Assembly: GCF_000346485.2 (NCBI RefSeq)
Contig: NZ_KQ976354.1
Location: forward strand, 5,780,824 to 5,812,823
Direction: 5' to 3'
DNA: 32,000 nucleotides
From: Scytonema hofmannii PCC 7110
GTDB taxonomy: Bacteria > Cyanobacteriota > Cyanobacteriia > Cyanobacteriales > Nostocaceae
Part shown: in pieces, positions 22,189 through 32,000 of the stretch
Layout of the letters: every line of letters starts with the position of its first letter
Numbering within the stretch: the first letter of the stretch is position 1
Position numbers and translations under genes: made by a program
Notes under the pieces: generated by a model
Databases searched by the model: none
The model's input: only the letters and a program-made list of their open reading frames with translations
Told to the model about the DNA's origin: nothing

Positions 22189-22485
22189 TTTGCGGTTCAT
22201 TTAAGTAGGTAGTCTTTGGGCGGGAAAGGAGTAGAAAACACTATAAACTACTTAAAAGAACATAATTTAAACCGCAGCAACTGATATGCTAGGGAGATTA
22301 TAGCGCTCGCTTTCCAACCCCACAAAACGAGGGATATTAGTTTTGCCAATTGTGATTTTTTCTGAGTTCTAATTTGAAAGGACAGGTTTTGCAATATTTT
22401 TAAAATCAGATTGTGGTTGCTAGCGATAAGCCGGGTACGGCTTGCGCTTCGCGAACGCACTGATTATACCTCACACAATTTTCAA

Positions 22486-23340
22486 TCAGCCATCAGCATA
22501 TGCTTTTTCCAACAAAGCTAAGGGGTCAGTCCAACGGCGAATTATCTGGGCTGGGGAGACAGTACGCCTCTGTTCGATGATTGCCAAGGTTTCTAACTGA
22601 TTGAGACACTCCTGTAATGCTTCTGTTTCTATACCAAGAATAGGCGCTAATCCCATTTTCTGCTGTAGGAGATCGTCGGTTAAAACAGAGGTTGTATCGC
22701 CAAAATCCCGTTCCCACAATTTGGCTAGAAAGTATCCAATTAGATAAGGATTGGGTAAAGTAGCATTTCTAGTAGTATATGTATCTTCGTCTAATGTAAG
22801 AAATTGGCAATACTTTAGAGGAGATTCTTCCTTGGTATTTTTATTAGGTGACAACGCATATGCTTTCAAAACAATCGTAAAGTTTTCCATGAGTCTCTTT
22901 TCAGAGTCCTGCTCAAAAATAACAGCGCTACATTGTACTAACTCATTTAGTGTGAAAGTAGGGAGTTCGGGTAAAAAACTATAAACGAAGTAAGACCAAC
23001 CACCCCAATCAGAAGGGTTGTCGGGTGGTTTTGCTAGTCCTTTGTCACCAAAGCTGAGGTAGAAGTGCATCAACCAGTCCGTGATGGTTGATTTTAGATA
23101 AGGGTCTTTTTCAAGAACAATCTTTCCTTCCGGGCTAAGGTAGTTGTCACGAACTAATCCTGCCCTCATCGCCCAACTTTTCATCGGAGCAACTTTCTTA
23201 TTTCCTAAACTTGTTCTCTCCATTAAGTTTTCTATAGTATCTTTTAAACCTTGTTCCTCAGCAGCTGTGCAAAGGATTTTAAGCAGGTCTTCTTTCTTAA
23301 GAGCAAATGTAGTGTGAAAACTAAGTTGTAACCTAGGCAT
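22486..23340 (-). CDS. DUF4007-like protein (SspB-like component of Ssp phosphorothioation systems)
   Basis: Size, the N-terminal SFHTTFAL...LGNKKVAPMKSWAMRAGLV pattern (DUF4007-like, from memory) and linkage to the cysteine desulfurase and PAPS-reductase genes. Confidence 0.5.
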   Translation of the reverse strand: MPRLQLSFHTTFALKKEDLLKILCTAAEEQGLKDTIENLMERTSLGNKKVAPMKSWAMRAGLVRDNYLSPEGKIVLEKDPYLKSTITDWLMHFYLSFGDKGLAKPPDNPSDWGGWSYFVYSFLPELPTFTLNELVQCSAVIFEQDSEKRLMENFTIVLKAYALSPNKNTKEESPLKYCQFLTLDEDTYTTRNATLPNPYLIGYFLAKLWERDFGDTTSVLTDDLLQQKMGLAPILGIETEALQECLNQLETLAIIEQRRTVSPAQIIRRWTDPLALLEKAYADG

Positions 23341-23720: not shown

Positions 23721-24887
23721 TTAAAAACACATAGCTTGACGGATTAGATGAACGGCAGACGACAGAATTTCAGCCGCCTGTTCGATTTCTGCACTCGTTG
23801 TAAATTTGCCAATCCCAATCCTTAGCGCTCCTTCAATTAAGTTGGAGGGTAAGCCCAAGGCTTGCAGAACATGAGAAGGTGTTTCTACACCTGATGAGCA
23901 AGCAGCACCTGTAGAAATAGCTAGCTGATGCCGAACTCTGGCTATAACTGCACTATTGGGAACATCAGGTATGGAAATATGGAGATTTCCTGATAAACGA
24001 GAGGATAAATCGCCGTTGACCGCTAAATCGGGAATTTTCTTTAGCAGTAATTTTTGTAATCTATCTCTTTTGATAGCGATCGCTTGTTCATCTTCTGCCA
24101 TTTCCAACTGACGCAGGCGACAAGCTTCTCCCAAGCCAACAATACCGGGAACATTGAGAGTTCCAGAACGCAAGCCCTTCTGATGACCACCACCGAATAA
24201 TATTGGCTTTAAATGATACCCTTTACGGATAACTAAAGCACCAGACCCTTTGGGACCGTAGAGTTTGTGAGCGGAGATTGCTAGATAAGTAATTCCCCAC
24301 TCTTCAAAATTGATAGGAATTTTGCCTACAGCCTGGGAAGCATCGCATAGAAAAGGGACACCATACTTTTGAGCAATTTGCCCAACAGCTTGAATGGGGT
24401 AAACGTTCCCAATTTCGTTATTAGCTGCCATAACGCAAAGTAAAGATAGCCCTGATGCACAAACTTGCTCAAGATATTCCAAGTCAAGCCTCCCTTCGGA
24501 ATCAACTTTCAAGTAAACAATCTCAGCAAGTCCCCGTTTAGCTAAAGCGTGGCAAGTGTCTAAAACTGCTTTGTGTTCAACAGGTAGAACAGCAATTCGG
24601 TGCTTTTTGTTCGCTTGAGAAAGCAGACTGCCTTGAATAACTATATTTATGCTTTCAGTTGCACCAGAAGTAAAAATGACTTGCTTTGGCGATACGCTTA
24701 CTAGTTTACCAACGTGAGAAGCTGATTTTGAAACGGCTTGTTCTGCCTCATTCCCATATTCATGATCTATGCTGCTTGCATTACCAAATGCTGTGGTCAT
24801 GTAATGCAGTATCAATGGTGCGACTCTGAGGTCTACAGGAGTCGTCGCATGATAGTCTAAGTAGATGATGTTACCTTTTCTAGTCAC
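23721..24887 (-). CDS. Class V aminotransferase / cysteine desulfurase (SspA/DndA/IscS-like)
   Basis: IYLDYHATTP, TSGATESIN, the PLP-lysine context SAHKLYGPKG, RSGTLNVPGIVG and the active-site loop STGAACSS. Confidence 0.9.
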   Translation of the reverse strand: MTRKGNIIYLDYHATTPVDLRVAPLILHYMTTAFGNASSIDHEYGNEAEQAVSKSASHVGKLVSVSPKQVIFTSGATESINIVIQGSLLSQANKKHRIAVLPVEHKAVLDTCHALAKRGLAEIVYLKVDSEGRLDLEYLEQVCASGLSLLCVMAANNEIGNVYPIQAVGQIAQKYGVPFLCDASQAVGKIPINFEEWGITYLAISAHKLYGPKGSGALVIRKGYHLKPILFGGGHQKGLRSGTLNVPGIVGLGEACRLRQLEMAEDEQAIAIKRDRLQKLLLKKIPDLAVNGDLSSRLSGNLHISIPDVPNSAVIARVRHQLAISTGAACSSGVETPSHVLQALGLPSNLIEGALRIGIGKFTTSAEIEQAAEILSSAVHLIRQAMCF

Positions 24888-25118
24888 TGGATATTAATAT
24901 AAATTTCTCTACCGGATTTTTGGAATTCATCCATTTTTATCAGAAATTTTGACCTATATATCTATGTGCTTTCTGCTTGATTGCTTCAATAACTGCATAA
25001 CGCCCTGCACTGCTATTGATGTCTTCTTTCTAAAAGAGCTTTTAAGAAAATTCCTCTTAATTTTGTTGACCGATACTGATTGGGAAATGATTGCTAGAGC
25101 AGCAAATTCAACATCTGA

Positions 25119-27383
25119 TTAAGTGAGCCAATCATACATACGATCCCAAAGAATATCACATATACGCTCTGTTCTTTTTTCTACAAAAGCTTTATCCCAT
25201 TTACCAGATGCTCCTAACTGCACAATAGGCACAATATGATGCTTGTGGGATGTCTTTTGCAGTAATTTGATTGTATCTTCGCATAGATTTACTCCATGCT
25301 TTTCCGCTTCTTTCTTTAATTTTTTTAAAATATCAGGATCTGTTTCTGCTAAATGTCGATAGTAAATCCATTTTTCAATCCAACCTTTATTACTAGCAGA
25401 ACTGTTAATTTCTTTAGGAAGAAGAGTCAAATTTCCAATTTGTTCATAATCATCATTTTCATATAACGCTTTATCCCAAATACTATTTCTTGTTTGAGAT
25501 TTAGGCGCTACGTGCTCTATATGCTTAAAATTTTCATCATCCCATTTACTTGGTTCTAAGTACGGGGAAGAGTGTAACATCCCATTTTTCATTAACCCTA
25601 AAGCACTTGGATCTGGAATAGTATCATGTGATGTCACAAAAAGTACAAATCGACAAACTTGTTTAGCATTATCATATCTCAAATATTGAACTGCTTTTTT
25701 CTTCCAGTCATCTTTATTTCCTATTCCTTTATCATCTAGCTTCTTCCTAAAATATTTCCGCAAATTTTCCACCGTTAACTCAGCATTACCTTTTTTCCAT
25801 GACATTTTTTCGTGAAGCAAGTCTCGATATACATCATCAAGACCCGTATTTGGTAATGCTGACCTCCAAATAGTAAAAAAAGCTGCAACTGTTTTACAAG
25901 TGAAAACAAATTCTCGTTCTGAATTGGGTTCGTTGCGTAAAATAAGAGCATAGAAGCGACTCAGAATTGTATTTGCCATCTTATGTCCTGCATCCTGAAG
26001 GTAAAGTAGACAAAGAATAGCTTCCTTTCTCTCTGGTTCTGCTACATTCTGTATTTCAGTTAAAGCACTATAAAGGTTTTTCTTATTGGAGGAATAAATT
26101 AACTTACTACAGTAGTTAGCAGTATCACTCATCCGGCGGACAAATTCTTCTCTAAAGCTGATTTTGTCTTCTTTAATATATTCATCTATTAACCAATTTC
26201 TCTGGGCGCTAAACTGCTTTGATAACTTTTTTCCATCATATGCTAGTGCAAAAAGGTTGAGATATTCATTTGTTCGTTTGTTTTTACTAGAAGCACTTCG
26301 CAAGGTACTCATTAGTTTTTCTACTTGTGTGAAGTATTCTTCTGATTTTGAACCCTGAAATCCATTCCCCTTTGAGTCAACATAATTAACAACCAATGGT
26401 TTGAAGGTTTCTAGAGCTGTAAGGGGAGTCCCCGTTGCATTTAGGGACTGAAACATATCAAATGCCCGAACTTGGGACACTGGTTGGATTAAGGTGAGGC
26501 AGCATCGTTCAAGTAAGAAATAACAAAAGGCAAAAAGCTGTACAAGTGAGCAGACTTTTTCTTGTTCATCAGTCATTGGAGTGTTACGATGCTGAATTAA
26601 ATTAACTAGATCTGGTCGCTGATAACTCCATAAGTCTACTTGATTTACCTTTTCCAGTATGTCCCAAGCTGGAGGAAAGTCTTCTGTACTTAATTTATGT
26701 GCGTTTTCAATTTTATCGAGCCAGAATTTCATGGCTTTCAAATTATCCGCAACGAGCGAGTTTTTTCTCGGATCCGGATATTGATTTGGATTAAGATAAA
26801 TAGCACATATAAAGCTTGCTAGAAATGAAGAAACATCGGATTTATAGTGCTTATTATCATCTCCACTTAATGTCCATCCATCAATTGAACCTCTAATAAG
26901 AATTGGCTTACGATTAGGTTTACCACGCATAAGGTCAACAGAAAATACATCTAAGAGAGTATTTAAATAAGTATTACTTGCTTCCTGTAATTCTTCCATT
27001 TCATCTCTTTCTGGCAATTGTTTTGTAATTTCGCATATTCTTCTGTATAAACAGCAGGCAAGTAAAGTAATAGTTGATAGCCGTTGTTGTCCATCGATAA
27101 CATTATCTATACGAGTAGGAAGAGCACGAGGATCTTGTGGCTTTACATTGTTTTCAACATCATTTTCGGTCACTAGAATGATAGTTCCCATAAAGTGAAG
27201 CGTATCCGCAGAGTCAAGTAGGTCTTTAACACCCGAACAGATATCATCCATCAATTGTTCAATGTTTTCTTCATCCCAGCTATATTCTCGTTGGTATAGA
27301 GGAATATAATATCCAATTCCTGGTCTTCTAAAAAAATATGATACTGATTCACTAACCGTGCTAAACGCTCTTGATATTTCCAT
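25119..27383 (-). CDS. DUF262 + DUF1524 protein, SspE-like phosphorothioation-associated restriction component
   Basis: N-terminal YYIPLYQREYSWDEENIEQL and DGQQRLSTITLL (DUF262). C-terminal HIEHVAPKS ... GNLTLLPKEINSSASNKGW (DUF1524/His-Me finger). The 754-aa size and its position inside a PT operon fit SspE. Confidence 0.75.
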   Translation of the reverse strand: MEISRAFSTVSESVSYFFRRPGIGYYIPLYQREYSWDEENIEQLMDDICSGVKDLLDSADTLHFMGTIILVTENDVENNVKPQDPRALPTRIDNVIDGQQRLSTITLLACCLYRRICEITKQLPERDEMEELQEASNTYLNTLLDVFSVDLMRGKPNRKPILIRGSIDGWTLSGDDNKHYKSDVSSFLASFICAIYLNPNQYPDPRKNSLVADNLKAMKFWLDKIENAHKLSTEDFPPAWDILEKVNQVDLWSYQRPDLVNLIQHRNTPMTDEQEKVCSLVQLFAFCYFLLERCCLTLIQPVSQVRAFDMFQSLNATGTPLTALETFKPLVVNYVDSKGNGFQGSKSEEYFTQVEKLMSTLRSASSKNKRTNEYLNLFALAYDGKKLSKQFSAQRNWLIDEYIKEDKISFREEFVRRMSDTANYCSKLIYSSNKKNLYSALTEIQNVAEPERKEAILCLLYLQDAGHKMANTILSRFYALILRNEPNSEREFVFTCKTVAAFFTIWRSALPNTGLDDVYRDLLHEKMSWKKGNAELTVENLRKYFRKKLDDKGIGNKDDWKKKAVQYLRYDNAKQVCRFVLFVTSHDTIPDPSALGLMKNGMLHSSPYLEPSKWDDENFKHIEHVAPKSQTRNSIWDKALYENDDYEQIGNLTLLPKEINSSASNKGWIEKWIYYRHLAETDPDILKKLKKEAEKHGVNLCEDTIKLLQKTSHKHHIVPIVQLGASGKWDKAFVEKRTERICDILWDRMYDWLT

Positions 27384-27664
27384 TACACCCTCCTATTAAA
27401 GAAATGTCTAATTCATATTTAATGATGTCAATTTGTTAATTATTTATTAGATGAATAACAAGTTATTGAAAATAATAGGCTAAACAACACAAACTCAGAT
27501 TTGAGTGAGTTATCAATTCAGTTAAAAATCGATTAGACATAAAATTATTTTCCTTGAGTTTTCTTAAATTCCCCATAATTAATTCATGTGTCAAATTTTA
27601 ATTTCTAACTTTTCCTTTCTGTATTCATACGTTCTACTTGAAGTCATTTTTCTTATAATAAACC

Positions 27665-29968
27665 CTACGTTTCTTCAACCGTAATACTTAGCAAACGATT
27701 CACGATTTTCTCCGCTTTTGCGAATTCTCCTAAACTCGCATAAATATTTTGCTTGCTCTTTTCGCGTACCTCTGACTCTACAATATCTTGTCTTTGCTGA
27801 ACAGTTTTCTCAATTTCATTTGCGTCTTTACCTTCACCAGTTAACCTAGCATACAGCATTTGAATTTCTTGTTTATATTCATTTGAGTTCAGAGTTTTTT
27901 TGACAGCGGCCTCTATATAATCTGCTCGCAATTTTAAAATGCTATCTATTATATTTGGTAAAGAATTTTTATAGGCTTCTGCTAGCGAAGGAGCGCTATC
28001 TGTGTTTAATTGATTTAATACTGTCTTATAAGCATATTTTGAGTGAATTATTTCTAAAATTGCATATCGGAAGAATATCCATTGTTCTTCATTAAGTTCT
28101 GATATGCTTTGTGAAAGAAGTCCTCGAAGACTCAAGTGATTAGGATCGAATATTCTAGTTCTATCTTCATTTACAAAACCTGTTAAAGTACGATGCTCAA
28201 CATCGGAATTAGAAGAAAAATAGGTATTGAGTGCAGCAATATATAGATTAGTTATAAATTCAATAACTTGGAATCGTCTGTTGTAAGATATTCCCGGTTC
28301 TATTAACAATTCAACAATTGAATGAACAGCCATTAAAAATCCTAGCTGGAAAGCTTGGGTAGACACTGTATCAAAAATCCACTTAGCACGGATAAGCAAC
28401 TCTTTTTGATCAGATTCGCTACCTTCTATCGAAAAAAACTTGTCATAATCAATACTAAAAAGCCTTGCTGCTCTTCGACGTTTTATCTCTTCTTGCCTCA
28501 TAGTAAGAGCAGAAGCCGTTGAGAGAGCATCATCCAGTTGATTGGTGATGTAATCATTACCAGCGCTTTCCTCATTCTGTTGCCTTTCTCGTAGACGCTT
28601 GATATGCTCATCAAAAACGTTTCTTACATTACTGCCTTCAAACAATAAGCTGTAGCATTTGTGTTGAATAGGATTTCCTTTCAATGCTGGGTCTGATAAA
28701 CGAGTGCGTAAAGCTCTCATTTCATAGTTATGTACAGCGAAGGGATGGAATTTGTCAAAAAGTGGAAGTATGACGGCATCTGTTACATCTGCCAAAAGCT
28801 TAACAGCTTCTTGAACTTCATCAGGAGAGTGATATTTACCAGAACGACGAGAAAGTGAAGACCATTTTTGAAGTGTTGTTCCTATTAGAATAGAGGCTGA
28901 ACGTTCTGAGTTTTGTGTCTTTCTACCATCCGTAATATCTTGTGTCTGCTCTAAATTAAAAGCTGCAGGCATACCGAAAGATGCTGCTGCATGCATTTTA
29001 TGTAGAGCCACAGCAGATGTGTATTCAAGCTGACCTACAACAACTTCGGTTTTCCTATGTTGTGCTTCTGAGACTGCATCACCAAATGCAAAAGAATAGA
29101 TTCGGGCAATTGATGCTTCTGACTCGCCACGACCTTTAAGCTTTGACAATGTTTCTCGCATCATCCTTGCTGCCAAGTCTTCGTCATCTAATAAAAGTTC
29201 TCGTGATTTACTAACTGGCTTAGCATTTTTGTTAACAACTAAAAATATTTCTCGACATATTGTTTTTAAATCAATACCCTTATGTTTATATTTCTCGTTA
29301 TTTTCATATAAATCGGGGAAGAAAACTATGCATATTGGTAGTTCTATATTTCTGATTTGAGCTTCTTTTAATGAAAGATGATTGTAAAAAGCAGCATAAC
29401 TATTTCCTGCCCAGCTATCATTAATCTGACGGTGCAAGGCTAAAACTGCCATAGCCCGATGTTGTCCATCCACAATAATGAAAGCTGTTTGCTGTCTGTT
29501 ATATCTAATTACACCAAGAGGACTAATTTGTTCTCCAATTTTTGCTATTTCAAAATCAAATAAATCACCAAAGCTAATTGAAACTTCACTTTGATTAGGT
29601 GGATTAGGATAATAAGATTTAATGCCAGTTTTATCGGTTCTTTTAGGAACTAAAACTGCTAGAATTGGTGGAAAAAATCTAGCAAATGCACCTGAAGCTC
29701 CTAGTAAGTAAGGTATGAGGTCGTGAGCAACACGAGAGTCATCAAGATCGCGTTGTAGAAGTTCATCAAAGGTTAATTCCTCAATATTGAACACTTCACG
29801 CCAAGGAACCATCTGAGAGGCTAAAGCATTCTCCCAGCTACCTTCAGAACCAGGTTTCATCTTTGTTAATAAAAATTGAGCACGTACCTTATTATCATCA
29901 GAGCCAATAGTAAATTCACCGTAAGTTCCGTAAATTGGATCTTTCTGGACTCCAAAACTGAATGACAT
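27665..29968 (-). CDS. Large DGQHR-motif (DndB/ParB-like) protein
   Basis: AFIIVDGQHRAMAVLAL motif ~170 aa from the N-terminus, then a long helical C-terminal region. Its start lies 3 nt from the stop of the upstream 227-aa gene, suggesting translational coupling. Confidence 0.7.
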   Translation of the reverse strand: MSFSFGVQKDPIYGTYGEFTIGSDDNKVRAQFLLTKMKPGSEGSWENALASQMVPWREVFNIEELTFDELLQRDLDDSRVAHDLIPYLLGASGAFARFFPPILAVLVPKRTDKTGIKSYYPNPPNQSEVSISFGDLFDFEIAKIGEQISPLGVIRYNRQQTAFIIVDGQHRAMAVLALHRQINDSWAGNSYAAFYNHLSLKEAQIRNIELPICIVFFPDLYENNEKYKHKGIDLKTICREIFLVVNKNAKPVSKSRELLLDDEDLAARMMRETLSKLKGRGESEASIARIYSFAFGDAVSEAQHRKTEVVVGQLEYTSAVALHKMHAAASFGMPAAFNLEQTQDITDGRKTQNSERSASILIGTTLQKWSSLSRRSGKYHSPDEVQEAVKLLADVTDAVILPLFDKFHPFAVHNYEMRALRTRLSDPALKGNPIQHKCYSLLFEGSNVRNVFDEHIKRLRERQQNEESAGNDYITNQLDDALSTASALTMRQEEIKRRRAARLFSIDYDKFFSIEGSESDQKELLIRAKWIFDTVSTQAFQLGFLMAVHSIVELLIEPGISYNRRFQVIEFITNLYIAALNTYFSSNSDVEHRTLTGFVNEDRTRIFDPNHLSLRGLLSQSISELNEEQWIFFRYAILEIIHSKYAYKTVLNQLNTDSAPSLAEAYKNSLPNIIDSILKLRADYIEAAVKKTLNSNEYKQEIQMLYARLTGEGKDANEIEKTVQQRQDIVESEVREKSKQNIYASLGEFAKAEKIVNRLLSITVEET

Positions 29969-29971
29969 AAA

Positions 29972-30655
29972 TTAGCGCCTCCCGCATATTGGATCTGAGA
30001 CAAGTTGTAAAAGCTTTTCTAAAGCACGTCTAGAAGTAGTATCAAATTCGGTATCATCATTATCTTCACCAATTTCAGCCGGAAGAGAATTAGTAGGAAA
30101 TATATGTACCATTAAGTCTCTTGGAGCTATTCTTCTAACTCTTGCTTCAAGAGGAAATGAATGAGGTATATTTAGCTGCTTCATAGTGGATTTAACACTT
30201 GCATTAGGAAAGATATTCAGGTGTTTACTGATTGAGGAAGTATCATTCCACATCTCATCTAAAGATATATAGTGTTGTAAATAAGCTCTTCGATATAAAT
30301 TCTTTGCTATACCTATATAAATGGGTCTAGTAAAAAAATACAAGGCATTAGATTTAAACAAGTCAATTAGAAAATTTTCAGCGCAAGCTACAACTTCATC
30401 AAGTACTTCTGACGCTATCTGTCTTTGAGATCCATACACAAATTTCAAGGTAGATTTTGATACTAAATGTACACCATAACGCATTTCGATCTCTGTCAGC
30501 ATTTCACTTGGAGTTTCAAGAAAAGATGCAATAGTCTGACTGACAACAAGAGTATCTACCACAAGTGGTCTATAATACCAAGCGTATAAACCTGATACAG
30601 GAGGAATTCGTGCAATCTGCACTCCACCTTGGAACTGCCTTTGCTCTTTTTGCAT
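29972..30655 (-). CDS. 227-aa protein, possible GIY-YIG-like nuclease with a long insertion between the GIY and YIG strands
   Basis: SGLYAWYY near the N-terminus and RPIYIGIAKNLYRRAYLQHY ~85 aa later resemble the GIY ... YIG-x-A-x-N-L-x-x-R motifs. The functional call is weak; the ORF itself is solid. Confidence 0.45.
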   Translation of the reverse strand: MQKEQRQFQGGVQIARIPPVSGLYAWYYRPLVVDTLVVSQTIASFLETPSEMLTEIEMRYGVHLVSKSTLKFVYGSQRQIASEVLDEVVACAENFLIDLFKSNALYFFTRPIYIGIAKNLYRRAYLQHYISLDEMWNDTSSISKHLNIFPNASVKSTMKQLNIPHSFPLEARVRRIAPRDLMVHIFPTNSLPAEIGEDNDDTEFDTTSRRALEKLLQLVSDPICGRR

Positions 30656-30767
30656 CTATTCACCTAAATAATCTCGTAAAATGATTTGATTTTTTATATT
30701 TTGGTTCTTCAGTACTTGTTATGCTAAATTAACAGATACTGAAGAGCCTATATTTTTAGCGTTTAAT

Positions 30768-31565
30768 TCATAAATGACAAGCAAAGCAAGGCTGTTCATC
30801 ATCTTCCTCCTCTAGTATAGAATTTAGCGCTTCTGCTAACGATCTACCGGGAGCAAGTATTTTCTCCCTAGCCATTGCTTTCTCATGCTCAATAATAATT
30901 TCTTCTTTTCTTTCGAGAAGTTCTAATAACGTTTCTCCTTCAGTCCATGTGTAACTCCTACCGTCTTTATGTTCCTGTTCGTATTTTACAGCTTCAGCGA
31001 ATAAGTCTGGATGCTCCTCTGCCAACTTTACCCATTCATACTTCCGTTGGAAAAAGCAGAAGAAACAACCAGATCGACTGCGCCAACGATAGTAATCTGG
31101 CATCCCAATTCCGCTTTCTTCAAGCAAACGAATAATATCTGCCTTTACGAGTCCTCGTTCTTTAAAGGGAAAGATAGGTTTGATATTAGGTTTGGTGGAG
31201 ATATAACCCTCTCGATTTTCGTCAGCCCGAATGCCAATGTAACTTTTAGCCTCATCATCACCTACAAACTTTTCTAGCGGCTCTATTTTCATTTTTTTGG
31301 TACACCATCGCATTTTAGGAGAGGGCAAAAATCCACCATAAATGTCAAGCCAGTGGTCAAATCCACGCTCAGCGCTGAGGTATTCAATTTTTATTCCCAG
31401 CCTAGCTTTGATACGGTCTAGATACTCGTAGGTTTCCTCTAGTTCCTTGTGCGTGTCGCAGAAGAAATATTCCATGTCCGGAATTTCCTTGTGTAGCAAA
31501 ACAGCCAAGGCCGTGCTATCTTTGCCTCCGGATAAACCTAAAATATGTCTTTCTTTCTTACCCAT
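30768..31565 (-). CDS. PAPS-reductase / ATP-pyrophosphatase family protein (SspD/DndC-like)
   Basis: PP-loop LSGGKDSTA at the N-terminus, Cys pairs CFFCFF and CFACH near the C-terminus, operon context. Confidence 0.8.
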   Translation of the reverse strand: MGKKERHILGLSGGKDSTALAVLLHKEIPDMEYFFCDTHKELEETYEYLDRIKARLGIKIEYLSAERGFDHWLDIYGGFLPSPKMRWCTKKMKIEPLEKFVGDDEAKSYIGIRADENREGYISTKPNIKPIFPFKERGLVKADIIRLLEESGIGMPDYYRWRSRSGCFFCFFQRKYEWVKLAEEHPDLFAEAVKYEQEHKDGRSYTWTEGETLLELLERKEEIIIEHEKAMAREKILAPGRSLAEALNSILEEEDDEQPCFACHL

Positions 31566-31587: not shown

Positions 31588-32000
31588 TCAATGATCGCTG
31601 TTTACTTTTAATTGGTCACTATTAAGTTTATCTCTCCTTGGAGAAAGGTTATCGATTCTTGTTGAGCCTAACACACGTTCAGTCAATTTGGCTACAACAG
31701 CTTGGTGAAATTGCGGGTTGTCAAATTTATTGATAATATCCCACAATTTATCTACCACATCATCAATTTGCGCTTGGTTTTCGTGGTCAAACCAAACCAA
31801 AGAGTGAGTTTCTTGCCCGTCTGGGCGAGTTACTGTAATTTTACGTGCTTCAAATCCCTCATTGCTACGAGTTTGAGCATCTTTCTGTAATGCCTCAAGG
31901 TTTTTGAACCGTCTTGCAATGTCTGACAGCTTAATTTCAAAATTTGTTACATCTTCATCTGTCCAAGAAGTAGCGGGTTTATCAGCAATAATCATCACTA
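31588..32000 (-). CDS. C-terminal end of an upstream operon gene, truncated by the window edge (possibly the SspC-like ATPase)
   Basis: The ORF is open to the window edge, and its stop lies 22 nt before the PAPS-reductase start. The function is guessed from operon context only. Confidence 0.4.
   Translation of the reverse strand, partial: VMIIADKPATSWTDEDVTNFEIKLSDIARRFKNLEALQKDAQTRSNEGFEARKITVTRPDGQETHSLVWFDHENQAQIDDVVDKLWDIINKFDNPQFHQAVVAKLTERVLGSTRIDNLSPRRDKLNSDQLKVNSDH

Follow-up and report, generated by a model that had tools for sequence, protein, structure and literature searches.

The gene pair and its locus

The DNA analysed here is a stretch of 32,000 nucleotides (nt) from Scytonema hofmannii PCC 7110 (assembly GCF_000346485.2, contig NZ_KQ976354.1, positions 5,780,824 to 5,812,823 of the forward strand), which we call the window. 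On its minus strand, within an operon of the Ssp type of DNA phosphorothioate (PT) modification, lie two adjacent genes, one for a predicted nuclease of 227 amino acids (aa) and one for a 767-aa protein with a DGQHR motif. We describe the two proteins, the linkage of their genes to the PT writer genes sspBCD and the exchange of the DNA that carries them, and we discuss the possibility that the pair encodes a restriction effector that reads PT. The pair itself consists of the following features.

29972..30655, minus strand: gene for the 227-aa protein, a predicted divergent GIY-YIG-family nuclease (P0002); first gene of the pair, open reading frame (ORF) confirmed
27665..29968, minus strand: gene for the 767-aa DGQHR/DndB-like protein (P0001); second gene of the pair, ORF confirmed
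29969..29971, minus strand: 3-nt spacer from the stop codon of the nuclease gene to the start of the DGQHR gene, from reading the sequence

A preliminary description of this DNA had noted two ORFs of 227 and 767 aa only 3 nt apart, and this is correct: on the minus strand the junction reads GGG AGG CGC TAA ttt ATG, that is, a stop codon, 3 nt and a start codon. A Shine-Dalgarno-like GGAGG lies 9 nt ahead of the ATG of the 767-aa gene, within the final codons of the nuclease gene. The same gene order with a spacing of 0 to 6 nt is found again in other loci. From this arrangement of the sequence, translational coupling of the two genes is plausible. Ahead of the nuclease gene there is a separate AGGTG, 6 nt from the ATG, and this gene starts 112 nt past the stop codon of sspD, and an AT-rich spacer of 281 nt separates the 767-aa gene from sspE. 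Consensus scans of this block predicted no strong promoter or terminator. Since each gene has more than 100 full-length homologues in several phyla, and since their order and spacing recur, the pair does not consist of chance ORFs. The complete order of genes on the minus strand is sspB, sspC, sspD, the 227-aa gene, the 767-aa gene, sspE, sspA, a VapB-like small ORF and a second DUF4007 gene.

The 227-aa protein

Searches with the 227-aa protein in Pfam, NCBIfam, PADLOC, PHROGs and PDB sequences returned no matches. It contains a GLY(22-24)...IYIGIAKNLYRR(112-123) pattern, and the following elements of a GIY-YIG domain can be assigned.

30572..30592, minus strand: 'GLYAWYY' strand, residues 22 to 28, the equivalent of the GIY motif with Y24 (conservation; predicted strand)
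30331..30565, minus strand: insertion of about 80 aa, residues ~31 to 108 (helix, two strands, helix), between GIY and YIG (AlphaFold2 secondary structure)
30272..30325, minus strand: 'PIYIGIAKNLYRRAYLQH', residues 111 to 128, with the YIG motif, the Arg at Gly+8 and the His (conservation; profile alignment)
30017..30019, minus strand: codon of E213, a candidate for the catalytic glutamate, which lies in the helix following strand beta-3 (invariant; profile alignment)

The distance between Y24 and Y113 is 89 residues versus approximately 10 to 11 in canonical GIY-YIG domains, and therefore about 80 aa must be inserted between the two motifs. The insertion is found in both clades of the nuclease family. 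The segment IYIGIAKNLYRRAYLQH shows the spacing of the GIY-YIG core, with YIG, an Arg at Gly+8 and then a His. In an alignment of 63 homologues, G22, Y24, W26, Y28, P111, Y113, G115, R123, H128 and E213 are invariant, and in a set of 60 diverse homologues, with identities as low as approximately 25%, at least 95% conservation was found for G22, Y24, W26, Y27, P111, Y113, I114, G115, L120, R123, H128 and E213. The Asn that usually follows the Glu is kept in clade 2 (E-x-x-L-N-R) and is replaced by Gln in the clade of the window.

The AlphaFold2 model of the protein has a predicted local distance difference test score (pLDDT) of 90.4. The predicted elements are beta1 (residues 22 to 28), the insertion, beta2 (113 to 117), a helix (120 to 136), three short helices, beta3 (181 to 187) and a helix (207 to 220), and in the model this order fits that of a GIY-YIG domain with two insertions. 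Compared by hhalign with an alignment of 14 GIY-YIG domains from related genomes, the family reached a probability of 85 to 92%, with P values of 6.4e-6 and 5.2e-7 for the window's clade and the sister clade, respectively; control comparisons gave P values of 0.02 to 0.1. For the sister clade, the YIG motif, the Arg, the His, strand 3 and the equivalent of E213 all align with their GIY-YIG counterparts. When the insertion was deleted by hand, PF01541 became the sole Pfam match (E 0.07 to 0.15, 13 to 14 bits versus a cut-off of 22.6). When 1.84 billion representative proteins were searched with the profile of the family, 283 relatives came up, and of 86 remote ones 32 match PF01541 (best 2e-5), 3 match GIY_YIG_2 and 1 matches T5orf172. 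No remote relatives of the nuclease were found in 400 Pseudomonadota genomes apart from the seed genome. Judged by these profile comparisons, the 227-aa protein is a divergent nuclease of the GIY-YIG superfamily with its catalytic residues intact. It belongs to an insertion-bearing family of its own, of approximately 280 clusters, that in the loci examined occurs only with 767-type partners.

In current annotation this signature is easily lost. PGAP gives the large protein of the pair the name 'DNA sulfur modification protein DndB' and leaves the small one as hypothetical. On plasmid A of Trichormus variabilis ATCC 29413 (L184:8312-8995), the nuclease gene is annotated as two abutting ORFs of 56 and 170 aa, and several database entries (P0049, P0057 and P0059) are 170-aa forms that apparently start at the internal Met58. 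Because such a start removes the GIY motif, annotation hides the signature of the nuclease.

The 767-aa protein

Two parts can be distinguished in the large protein of the pair.

29129..29791, minus strand: ParB/Srx-like DGQHR domain, residues ~60 to 280 (Pfam match at residues 60 to 277; QR, DGQHR and FxxxN motifs)
27668..28621, minus strand: family-specific helical C-terminal extension, residues ~450 to 767 (end of the hhalign alignment; AlphaFold2 model)

The Pfam DndB family (PF14072) matches residues 60 to 277 just above its threshold (2.8e-7, 30.4 bits versus a cut-off of 29.1), and all 55 homologues match it as well. The score for TIGR03187, the DGQHR domain, lies below its cut-off (32.3 versus 58.85 bits). 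In a genome search, the DndB equivalog TIGR03233 (cut-off 328 bits) gave no match to the 767-aa protein at 1e-5; the same model detects a DndB-like gene of 359 aa at another place in the genome. When aligned by hhalign with 17 cyanobacterial DndB-like proteins, residues 31 to 448 span the whole DndB length (probability 91%, P 1e-6). These 17 proteins have 348 to 446 aa, and TIGR03233 has 355 positions. The preliminary description had stated that the protein is about twice the size of DndB and carries a long helical C-terminal extension, and both statements hold; residues 319 to 760 are almost wholly helical in the AlphaFold2 model (pLDDT 80).

The motifs QR (residues 72 and 73), DGQHR (167 to 171) and FxxxN (242 to 246), as defined previously (PMC4619093), are at least 95% conserved among 60 homologues, and DGQHR is invariant. 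Conservation is concentrated in the ParB-like part (Q72, R73, D74, D76, D77, R79, D167 to R171, R239, F242 and N246, and further R256, D262, D264, R271 and K278). In the same 60 homologues, the C-terminal half shows scattered conserved residues without a nuclease-like motif. No Pfam or PDB match was found for residues ~450 to 767, and PADLOC, NCBIfam and PHROGs gave no defence-family match for either protein of the pair. Two candidates in this half were rejected: a dsRBD-like PDB match at residues 653 to 726 (E 0.1) disagrees with the model, in which this region consists of helices only, and a HEPN Rx4-6H motif was not accepted, with R634 and H642 being 7 residues apart and not conserved in both clades.

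Distribution and linkage to the PT writer genes

Full-length homologues of both proteins occur in Cyanobacteria, Alphaproteobacteria, Burkholderiales, Desulfobacterota, Gemmatimonadota, Poribacteria and Bacteroidota. The pair is also carried on conjugative plasmids, and a phage collection held no matches to it. The homologues fall into two clades. Those of clade 1, to which the window belongs, are at least 34% (nuclease) and at least 46% (large protein) identical to the copies in the window, and for clade 2 the values are approximately 25% and 27%.

The two genes are tightly linked to each other and to the PT writer. A 767-type gene directly follows the nuclease gene in all 64 loci with at least 2.3 kb of downstream sequence. 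Directly upstream, on the same strand, lies sspD in 55 of the 101 loci examined, and SspC or SspD is encoded within the fetched stretch in 70; the rest are too short to judge, except one poribacterial locus (L021). SspE was not found in any of these 101 loci. The PT linkage put forward in the preliminary description was thus borne out. In an even sample of the phylum, 401 cyanobacterial genomes, a genuine sspD is present in 21. The 767-aa family was found in 7 of these 21, in every case beside sspD, and in none of the 380 genomes that lack sspD, and the nuclease accompanies it in 4 of the 7.

The two partners also diverge together. Between their identities to the window copies we found a Spearman rho of 0.84 (n = 41), whereas the divergence of the pair is only weakly correlated with that of SspD (rho 0.23 to 0.30); for SspD and SspC the value is 0.78. 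Correlating identities in this way is a crude measure, and the loci are not independent of each other. SspD proteins that are 72 to 80% identical to that of the window are found in SspBCD operons together with clade-1 as well as clade-2 pairs, and there are other sspBCD operons in cyanobacteria that contain no pair. Because some operons lack the pair and similar SspBCD proteins are combined with either clade, the pair is not essential for modification. Taken together, it behaves as one co-evolving unit that depends on the presence of a PT writer and is freely exchanged relative to that writer.

Two kinds of loci have additional neighbours. In the poribacterial locus (L021:12935-15515), genes for an HNH_2 endonuclease and a TIR-domain protein come after a solitary pair, which lies beside carAB and pyrC-like genes. 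There is no Ssp gene within 10 kb, and elsewhere in that genome a PAPS-reductase homologue of DndC size (469 aa) is encoded. In several metagenomic loci that also carry SspC/D, genes for PbeA (HKD-helicase) and PbeC (CxC ABC ATPase) are found just upstream of clade-2 pairs (L110:2796-7208, L137:1168-5517 and L139:4075-6240).

Neighbouring genes and exchange of the cassette

The other genes of the locus, and the cassette to which the pair belongs, are as follows.

25119..27383, minus strand: sspE (DUF262 + DUF1524), downstream of the pair (PADLOC SspE, E = 0; Pfam GmrSD_N and GmrSD_C)
30768..31565, minus strand: sspD (PAPS-reductase family), directly upstream of the pair (PADLOC SspD, 3e-113)
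31588..32000, minus strand: 3' end of sspC, the rest of the gene (1175 aa in full) lying beyond the window (PADLOC SspC)
23721..24887, minus strand: sspA, cysteine desulfurase (PADLOC SspA/DndA, ~1e-135)
24909..30771, minus strand: exchangeable, AT-rich and HIP1-free cassette with sspE and the pair, from the sspA start to the sspD stop (borders of nucleotide homology; composition)

Genes that run beyond the window were taken in full from the genome; sspB encodes 307 aa (DUF4007, 1e-100). SspE is a known PT-sensing nickase (PMC9646914).

Two genomes of the same genus, G001 and G002, show how this cassette is exchanged. Their SspB, SspC, SspD, SspA and second DUF4007 proteins are 92 to 96% identical to those of the window, except that the second DUF4007 protein of G002 reaches only 65%. 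DNA homology of approximately 92% with a same-genus genome begins at window position 22261; in G001 it stops 21 nt upstream of the sspA start, at 24908, and resumes at 30772, past the sspD stop. Between these borders, the window has sspE and a clade-1 pair, and G001 has genes for a 538-aa Walker-A ATPase and a 237-aa protein together with a clade-2 pair. The replacing pair in the same-genus genomes is approximately 27% identical to that of the window. The slot of G002 holds a clade-2 pair and a second, shorter pair in the opposite orientation. Composition separates the same genes: G+C content at third codon positions is 23 to 26% for the nuclease gene, the 767-aa gene and sspE versus 31 to 38% for sspB, sspC, sspD and sspA, and no HIP1 site occurs over the 8.4 kb from 24076 to 32532, compared to a genome average of 0.6 per kb. 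The pair thus shares its cassette borders and its composition with sspE and not with sspBCD.

The shorter pair of G002 (L187:5713-8266) is divergent and encodes proteins of 190 and 664 aa. In G001 the genes at the sspE position (L186:6330-8669) encode the 538-aa ATPase, which has a GSRGTGKS motif, and the 237-aa protein; neither has a PADLOC match, and they may form a defence pair.

In cyanobacteria the slot between sspD and sspA has several kinds of occupants. It is filled by SspE in 2 loci, by SspFGH in 2 (L164 by PADLOC and L161 by gene sizes), by a trio of helicase, GHKL ATPase and PLD genes in at least 5, and by short DndB-like genes in 2, with a third such locus (L188) in a genome outside the sample of 401; the pair is found there alone or combined with another module. 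The trio, located after sspD or after the pair, encodes a DEAD-box helicase (~540 aa), a GHKL ATPase (~620 aa) with a weak MzaB-like match and a PLD-family protein (~310 aa). It occurs in at least five cyanobacterial Ssp loci (L160:5146-9556, L171, L174, L158, L184:11376-15933 on plasmid A of T. variabilis, and L119:10947-14376) and looks like another undescribed Ssp-linked restriction module. In two further loci (L165:10365-11052 and L162:9055-9396), a minimal nucleotidyltransferase (MNT) gene sits between sspD and a DGQHR gene of 786 to 787 aa, exactly at the place of the nuclease, and in L165 it comes with a HEPN gene (DUF86-like, RDILAHQY). This may represent either the replacement of an effector or the insertion of a toxin-antitoxin system.

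Outside the cassette, two neighbours deserve mention. A gene matching TIGR04096, 'DNA phosphorothioation-associated putative methyltransferase' (1.7e-272), lies shortly beyond sspB on the opposite strand (37330 to 39510 in window-extended coordinates), with a Uma2-family gene between the two, and the methyltransferase gene recurs in 18 of the 101 pair-carrying loci. Beyond sspA, at window positions 22486 to 23340, lies the second DUF4007 gene, which encodes a divergent SspB-like protein of 284 aa, a weaker match than sspB. A homologue of it directly follows sspE in another cyanobacterial locus (L166:12811-13689), which suggests that this gene travels with sspE rather than with sspBCD.

A possible function for the pair

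The two partners co-evolve as a unit, they are swapped relative to the writer, they share a cassette with proven restriction modules, and their nuclease and nucleoside triphosphate (NTP) residues are conserved. For these reasons we favour the explanation that the pair encodes a two-subunit, PT-linked and PT-reading NTPase-nuclease effector, a split analogue of SspE; on the sequence evidence at hand, we consider the balance for and against this explanation to be about even. The pair would be co-transcribed with sspBCD and translationally coupled, and its products would form a complex. In the 767-aa subunit, the DGQHR domain would be an NTP switch that binds DNA and reads its PT status, and the long helical C-terminal half may serve for dimerisation or clamping. 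This subunit would then license the GIY-YIG subunit, with Y24, Y113, R123, H128 and E213, to nick or cut DNA that is judged foreign, and an anti-phage effect would be expected. PT may either activate the module, as it does SspE, or shield DNA from it, as in the case of SspFGH. The module would fill the variable effector slot of the Ssp operon, which is held elsewhere by SspE or SspFGH.

Several points weigh against this explanation. Foldseek gave no significant match for the 227-aa model against PDB and BFVD, and no GIY-YIG structure, and Pfam PF01541 did not match the intact protein at E<=0.1, nor in a genome-wide scan. The preliminary description had proposed a GIY-YIG fold interrupted by about 85 aa; its superfamily assignment stands by profile evidence and the insertion is real, at about 80 aa, but the fold was not confirmed by Foldseek. 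For the 767-aa model, Foldseek likewise found no significant match. In 3 of the 7 cyanobacterial genomes with the 767-aa protein the nuclease is missing, one of these loci being decayed, and in 2 of the 3 an MNT or MNT-HEPN cassette takes its place. Because the large protein is kept without the nuclease in these genomes, it has some role that is independent of this nuclease. Where the pair is present, it often shares the slot with a known or likely restriction module, such as SspE in the window and the helicase-GHKL-PLD trio in at least five loci, and this co-occurrence would also suit a role in regulation or as an auxiliary. Nothing can be concluded from the lack of SspE in the remaining loci, since only approximately 7% of sspBCD clusters carry sspE (PMC8092258), and mutual exclusion of the pair and SspE was for the same reason rejected as evidence. 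Finally, two ParB-like relatives that have been characterised in modification systems do not act as restriction effectors: DndB is a repressor (PMC6459918), and DpdB is an ATPase of the modification step (PMC10164549).

The main alternative, which we consider less likely but which has to be taken seriously, is that the 767-aa protein is a regulator of the DndB type. It would bind DNA at the ssp promoter or at PT sites, modulated by NTP, and tune SspBCD and the PT level, and the nuclease would be an accessory, for example, for processing nicks or clearing stalled intermediates. DndB is an established repressor (PMC6459918), the PF14072 match is above threshold, residues 31 to 448 align with whole DndB-like proteins, and PGAP names the homologues DndB. 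The gene position is also what one may expect of a regulator, as the pair adjoins the writer genes ahead of other restriction modules, both here and on plasmid A of T. variabilis, and three other cyanobacterial loci have short DndB-like genes after sspD. Both the three genomes that keep the large protein alone and the frequent company of other restriction modules are easily understood under regulation. However, a regulator bound to the promoter or to SspBCD should co-evolve with them, whereas the pair has been swapped for a version that is approximately 27% identical amid ssp flanks that are approximately 92% identical at the DNA level, and its divergence is poorly correlated with that of SspD. 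Its composition and cassette borders are those of sspE and not of sspBCD. The known mechanism of DndB leaves no room for a nuclease that is strictly co-inherited and keeps its catalytic residues, and the equivalog TIGR03233 gives no match to the 767-aa protein at 1e-5 in the genome search.

It is much less probable that the pair works on the modification side as an ATPase helper, similar to DpdB, with NTP-driven DNA remodelling or target selection for SspBCD and with a nuclease that makes or edits the nick for sulfur insertion. There is a precedent in DpdB, a ParB-like protein with a DGQQR motif whose ATPase is needed for modification by DpdA (PMC10164549), and the pair directly follows sspD and, with no strong promoter or terminator predicted between them, may share its transcript. 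However, the pair is not essential for modification, as shown by the sspBCD operons without it and by the similar SspD proteins (72 to 80% identical) found with either clade. In addition, SspB, called the nickase of the system in PMC12914056, is retained in loci that carry the pair, and cassette swapping argues against a close co-adaptation with the SspBCD proteins. Equally improbable is a stand-alone abortive-infection or toxin-like nuclease without PT dependence that resides in an Ssp hotspot as an independent defence or addiction cassette: the poribacterial pair beside HNH and TIR-domain genes, surrounded by housekeeping genes and lacking an Ssp gene within 10 kb, and the unrelated cargo that the slot accepts (MNT-HEPN, or the ATPase with the 237-aa protein) would fit it, but the restriction of the 767-aa family to 7 of the 21 sspD-bearing genomes and none of the 380 others, and the presence of SspC/D in 70 of 101 loci with all the rest but the poribacterial one too short to judge, amount to a linkage across phyla that is hard to explain by hotspot chance alone.

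Significance for orphan Ssp systems

Most sspBCD clusters, 2,211 of 2,678 (a share given as 84%), are without a known restriction partner (PMC8092258). In the 21 cyanobacterial genomes with sspD, the 767-aa family is beside that gene in 7, more often than SspE (2) or SspFGH (2). The pair recurs across many phyla and is a good candidate for a missing partner of such orphan systems. Were it an effector, part of the orphan Ssp problem would be explained, and there would be a third architecture of PT-based immunity, in which a GIY-YIG nuclease acts in trans with a DndB-like NTP switch. The broader claim, that the pair is an undescribed and widespread PT-reading restriction effector, the missing partner of a sizeable share of orphan SspBCD systems, with at least two deeply diverged, interchangeable clades that are cassette-swapped under phage pressure, is one that we hold slightly less readily, and we incorporate it here as a tentative proposal.

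The pair also bears on a question raised in PMC10853773, namely whether proteins of the DndB family are more than repressors. The exchange between congeneric genomes, with borders at the level of single bases, provides two allelic cassettes that can be compared on one shared SspBCD background. For annotation it is of importance that the large protein is called 'DndB' and the small one 'hypothetical', and that the small gene is often started at an internal Met, giving 170 aa and the loss of the GIY motif.

Comparison with known systems

We found no paper that describes the pair, in line with the novelty that the preliminary description had suggested. The small protein resembles canonical GIY-YIG domains of the UvrC N-terminal, I-TevI and Eco29kI types in having GIY...YIG, the Arg at Gly+8, a His in helix 1 and a Glu past strand 3, and it differs from them by its insertion of approximately 80 aa and by some 40 extra residues before strand 3. 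Among PT-related systems, Pbe consists of PbeA (HKD-helicase), PbeB (66 aa), PbeC (CxC ABC ATPase) and PbeD (152 aa, DndE-like) (PMC6459918, PMC10853773), and the PADLOC Pbe models do not match the pair, even in L110, where it lies beside genuine PbeA and PbeC.

SspFGH of Vibrio anguillarum FF-93 is an Ssp-linked restriction module in the same slot (PMC8092258), and it is compatible with SspE in one cell (PMC8092258). However, it has three genes, whose products are SspF (Walker A motif; 600 positions in the model), SspG and the FtsK-like SspH (~1800 aa). The preliminary description had left it undecided whether the pair equals SspF and SspG. The two are distinct: the PADLOC models for SspF, SspG and SspH score 1e-234, 3e-190 and 0, respectively, on the genuine SspFGH of L164 and give no match to the pair at E<=0.1.

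Two relatives act on the modification side or in its control. DpdB, compared here by description, is ParB-like, bears a DGQQR motif, has a C-terminal domain made of helices and is encoded in a DNA-modification defence island (PMC10164549). It is a homodimeric, DNA-stimulated ATPase required for the DNA modification catalysed by DpdA (PMC10164549), and, unlike the 767-aa protein, it works with DpdA and without a nuclease partner. DndB, known from the dndBCDE operons of Salmonella enterica Cerro 87 and Streptomyces lividans, is a repressor of the PT-writer operon (PMC6459918). It shares with the 767-aa protein the PF14072 domain, the QR, DGQHR and FxxxN motifs, the alignment over residues 31 to 448 and the position beside PT-writer genes. 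However, the 767-aa protein is twice as large, with an additional helical region of approximately 320 aa, and its gene is not the first of dndBCDE but belongs to an Ssp operon, where it comes after sspD and a nuclease gene. It is usually paired with a nuclease and lies in a swappable cassette, whereas DndB represses without a nuclease partner.

The closest parallels in the logic of the domains are found in GmrSD and SspE. GmrSD, a Type IV restriction system, is encoded either as a fusion or as separate GmrS and GmrD genes (PMC4619093), and in its split form adjacent genes for a ParB-like NTPase and a nuclease co-evolve (PMC4619093), as they do here. GmrS is a DUF262 protein and GmrD an HNH nuclease, their target is glucosylated hydroxymethylcytosine DNA and not a PT context, and no sequence relationship with the pair is detectable beyond the fold-level motif. 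SspE, studied in the SspABCD-SspE systems of Vibrio cyclitrophicus FF75, Escherichia coli 3234/A and Streptomyces, resembles the pair in occupying the slot directly after sspD and in combining a ParB-fold domain that bears a D-G-Q-x-R motif with a nuclease. Its DGQQR motif is essential for GTPase activity, and PT recognition licenses SspE to nick (PMC9646914, PMC13251355). There are clear differences, as SspE is one polypeptide and the pair is two, and SspE joins DUF262 (PF03235) to a DUF1524 HNH domain where the pair has DGQHR/PF14072 and GIY-YIG. PADLOC and Pfam gave no SspE-type match for either protein of the pair, and in an hhalign comparison of the DGQHR family with the window's SspE only the 10-residue motif aligned (P 0.14). 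The pair also co-exists here with a genuine sspE. By analogy, the domain logic of the pair is best read as that of a split, nuclease-swapped counterpart of SspE and of the two-gene GmrS/GmrD.

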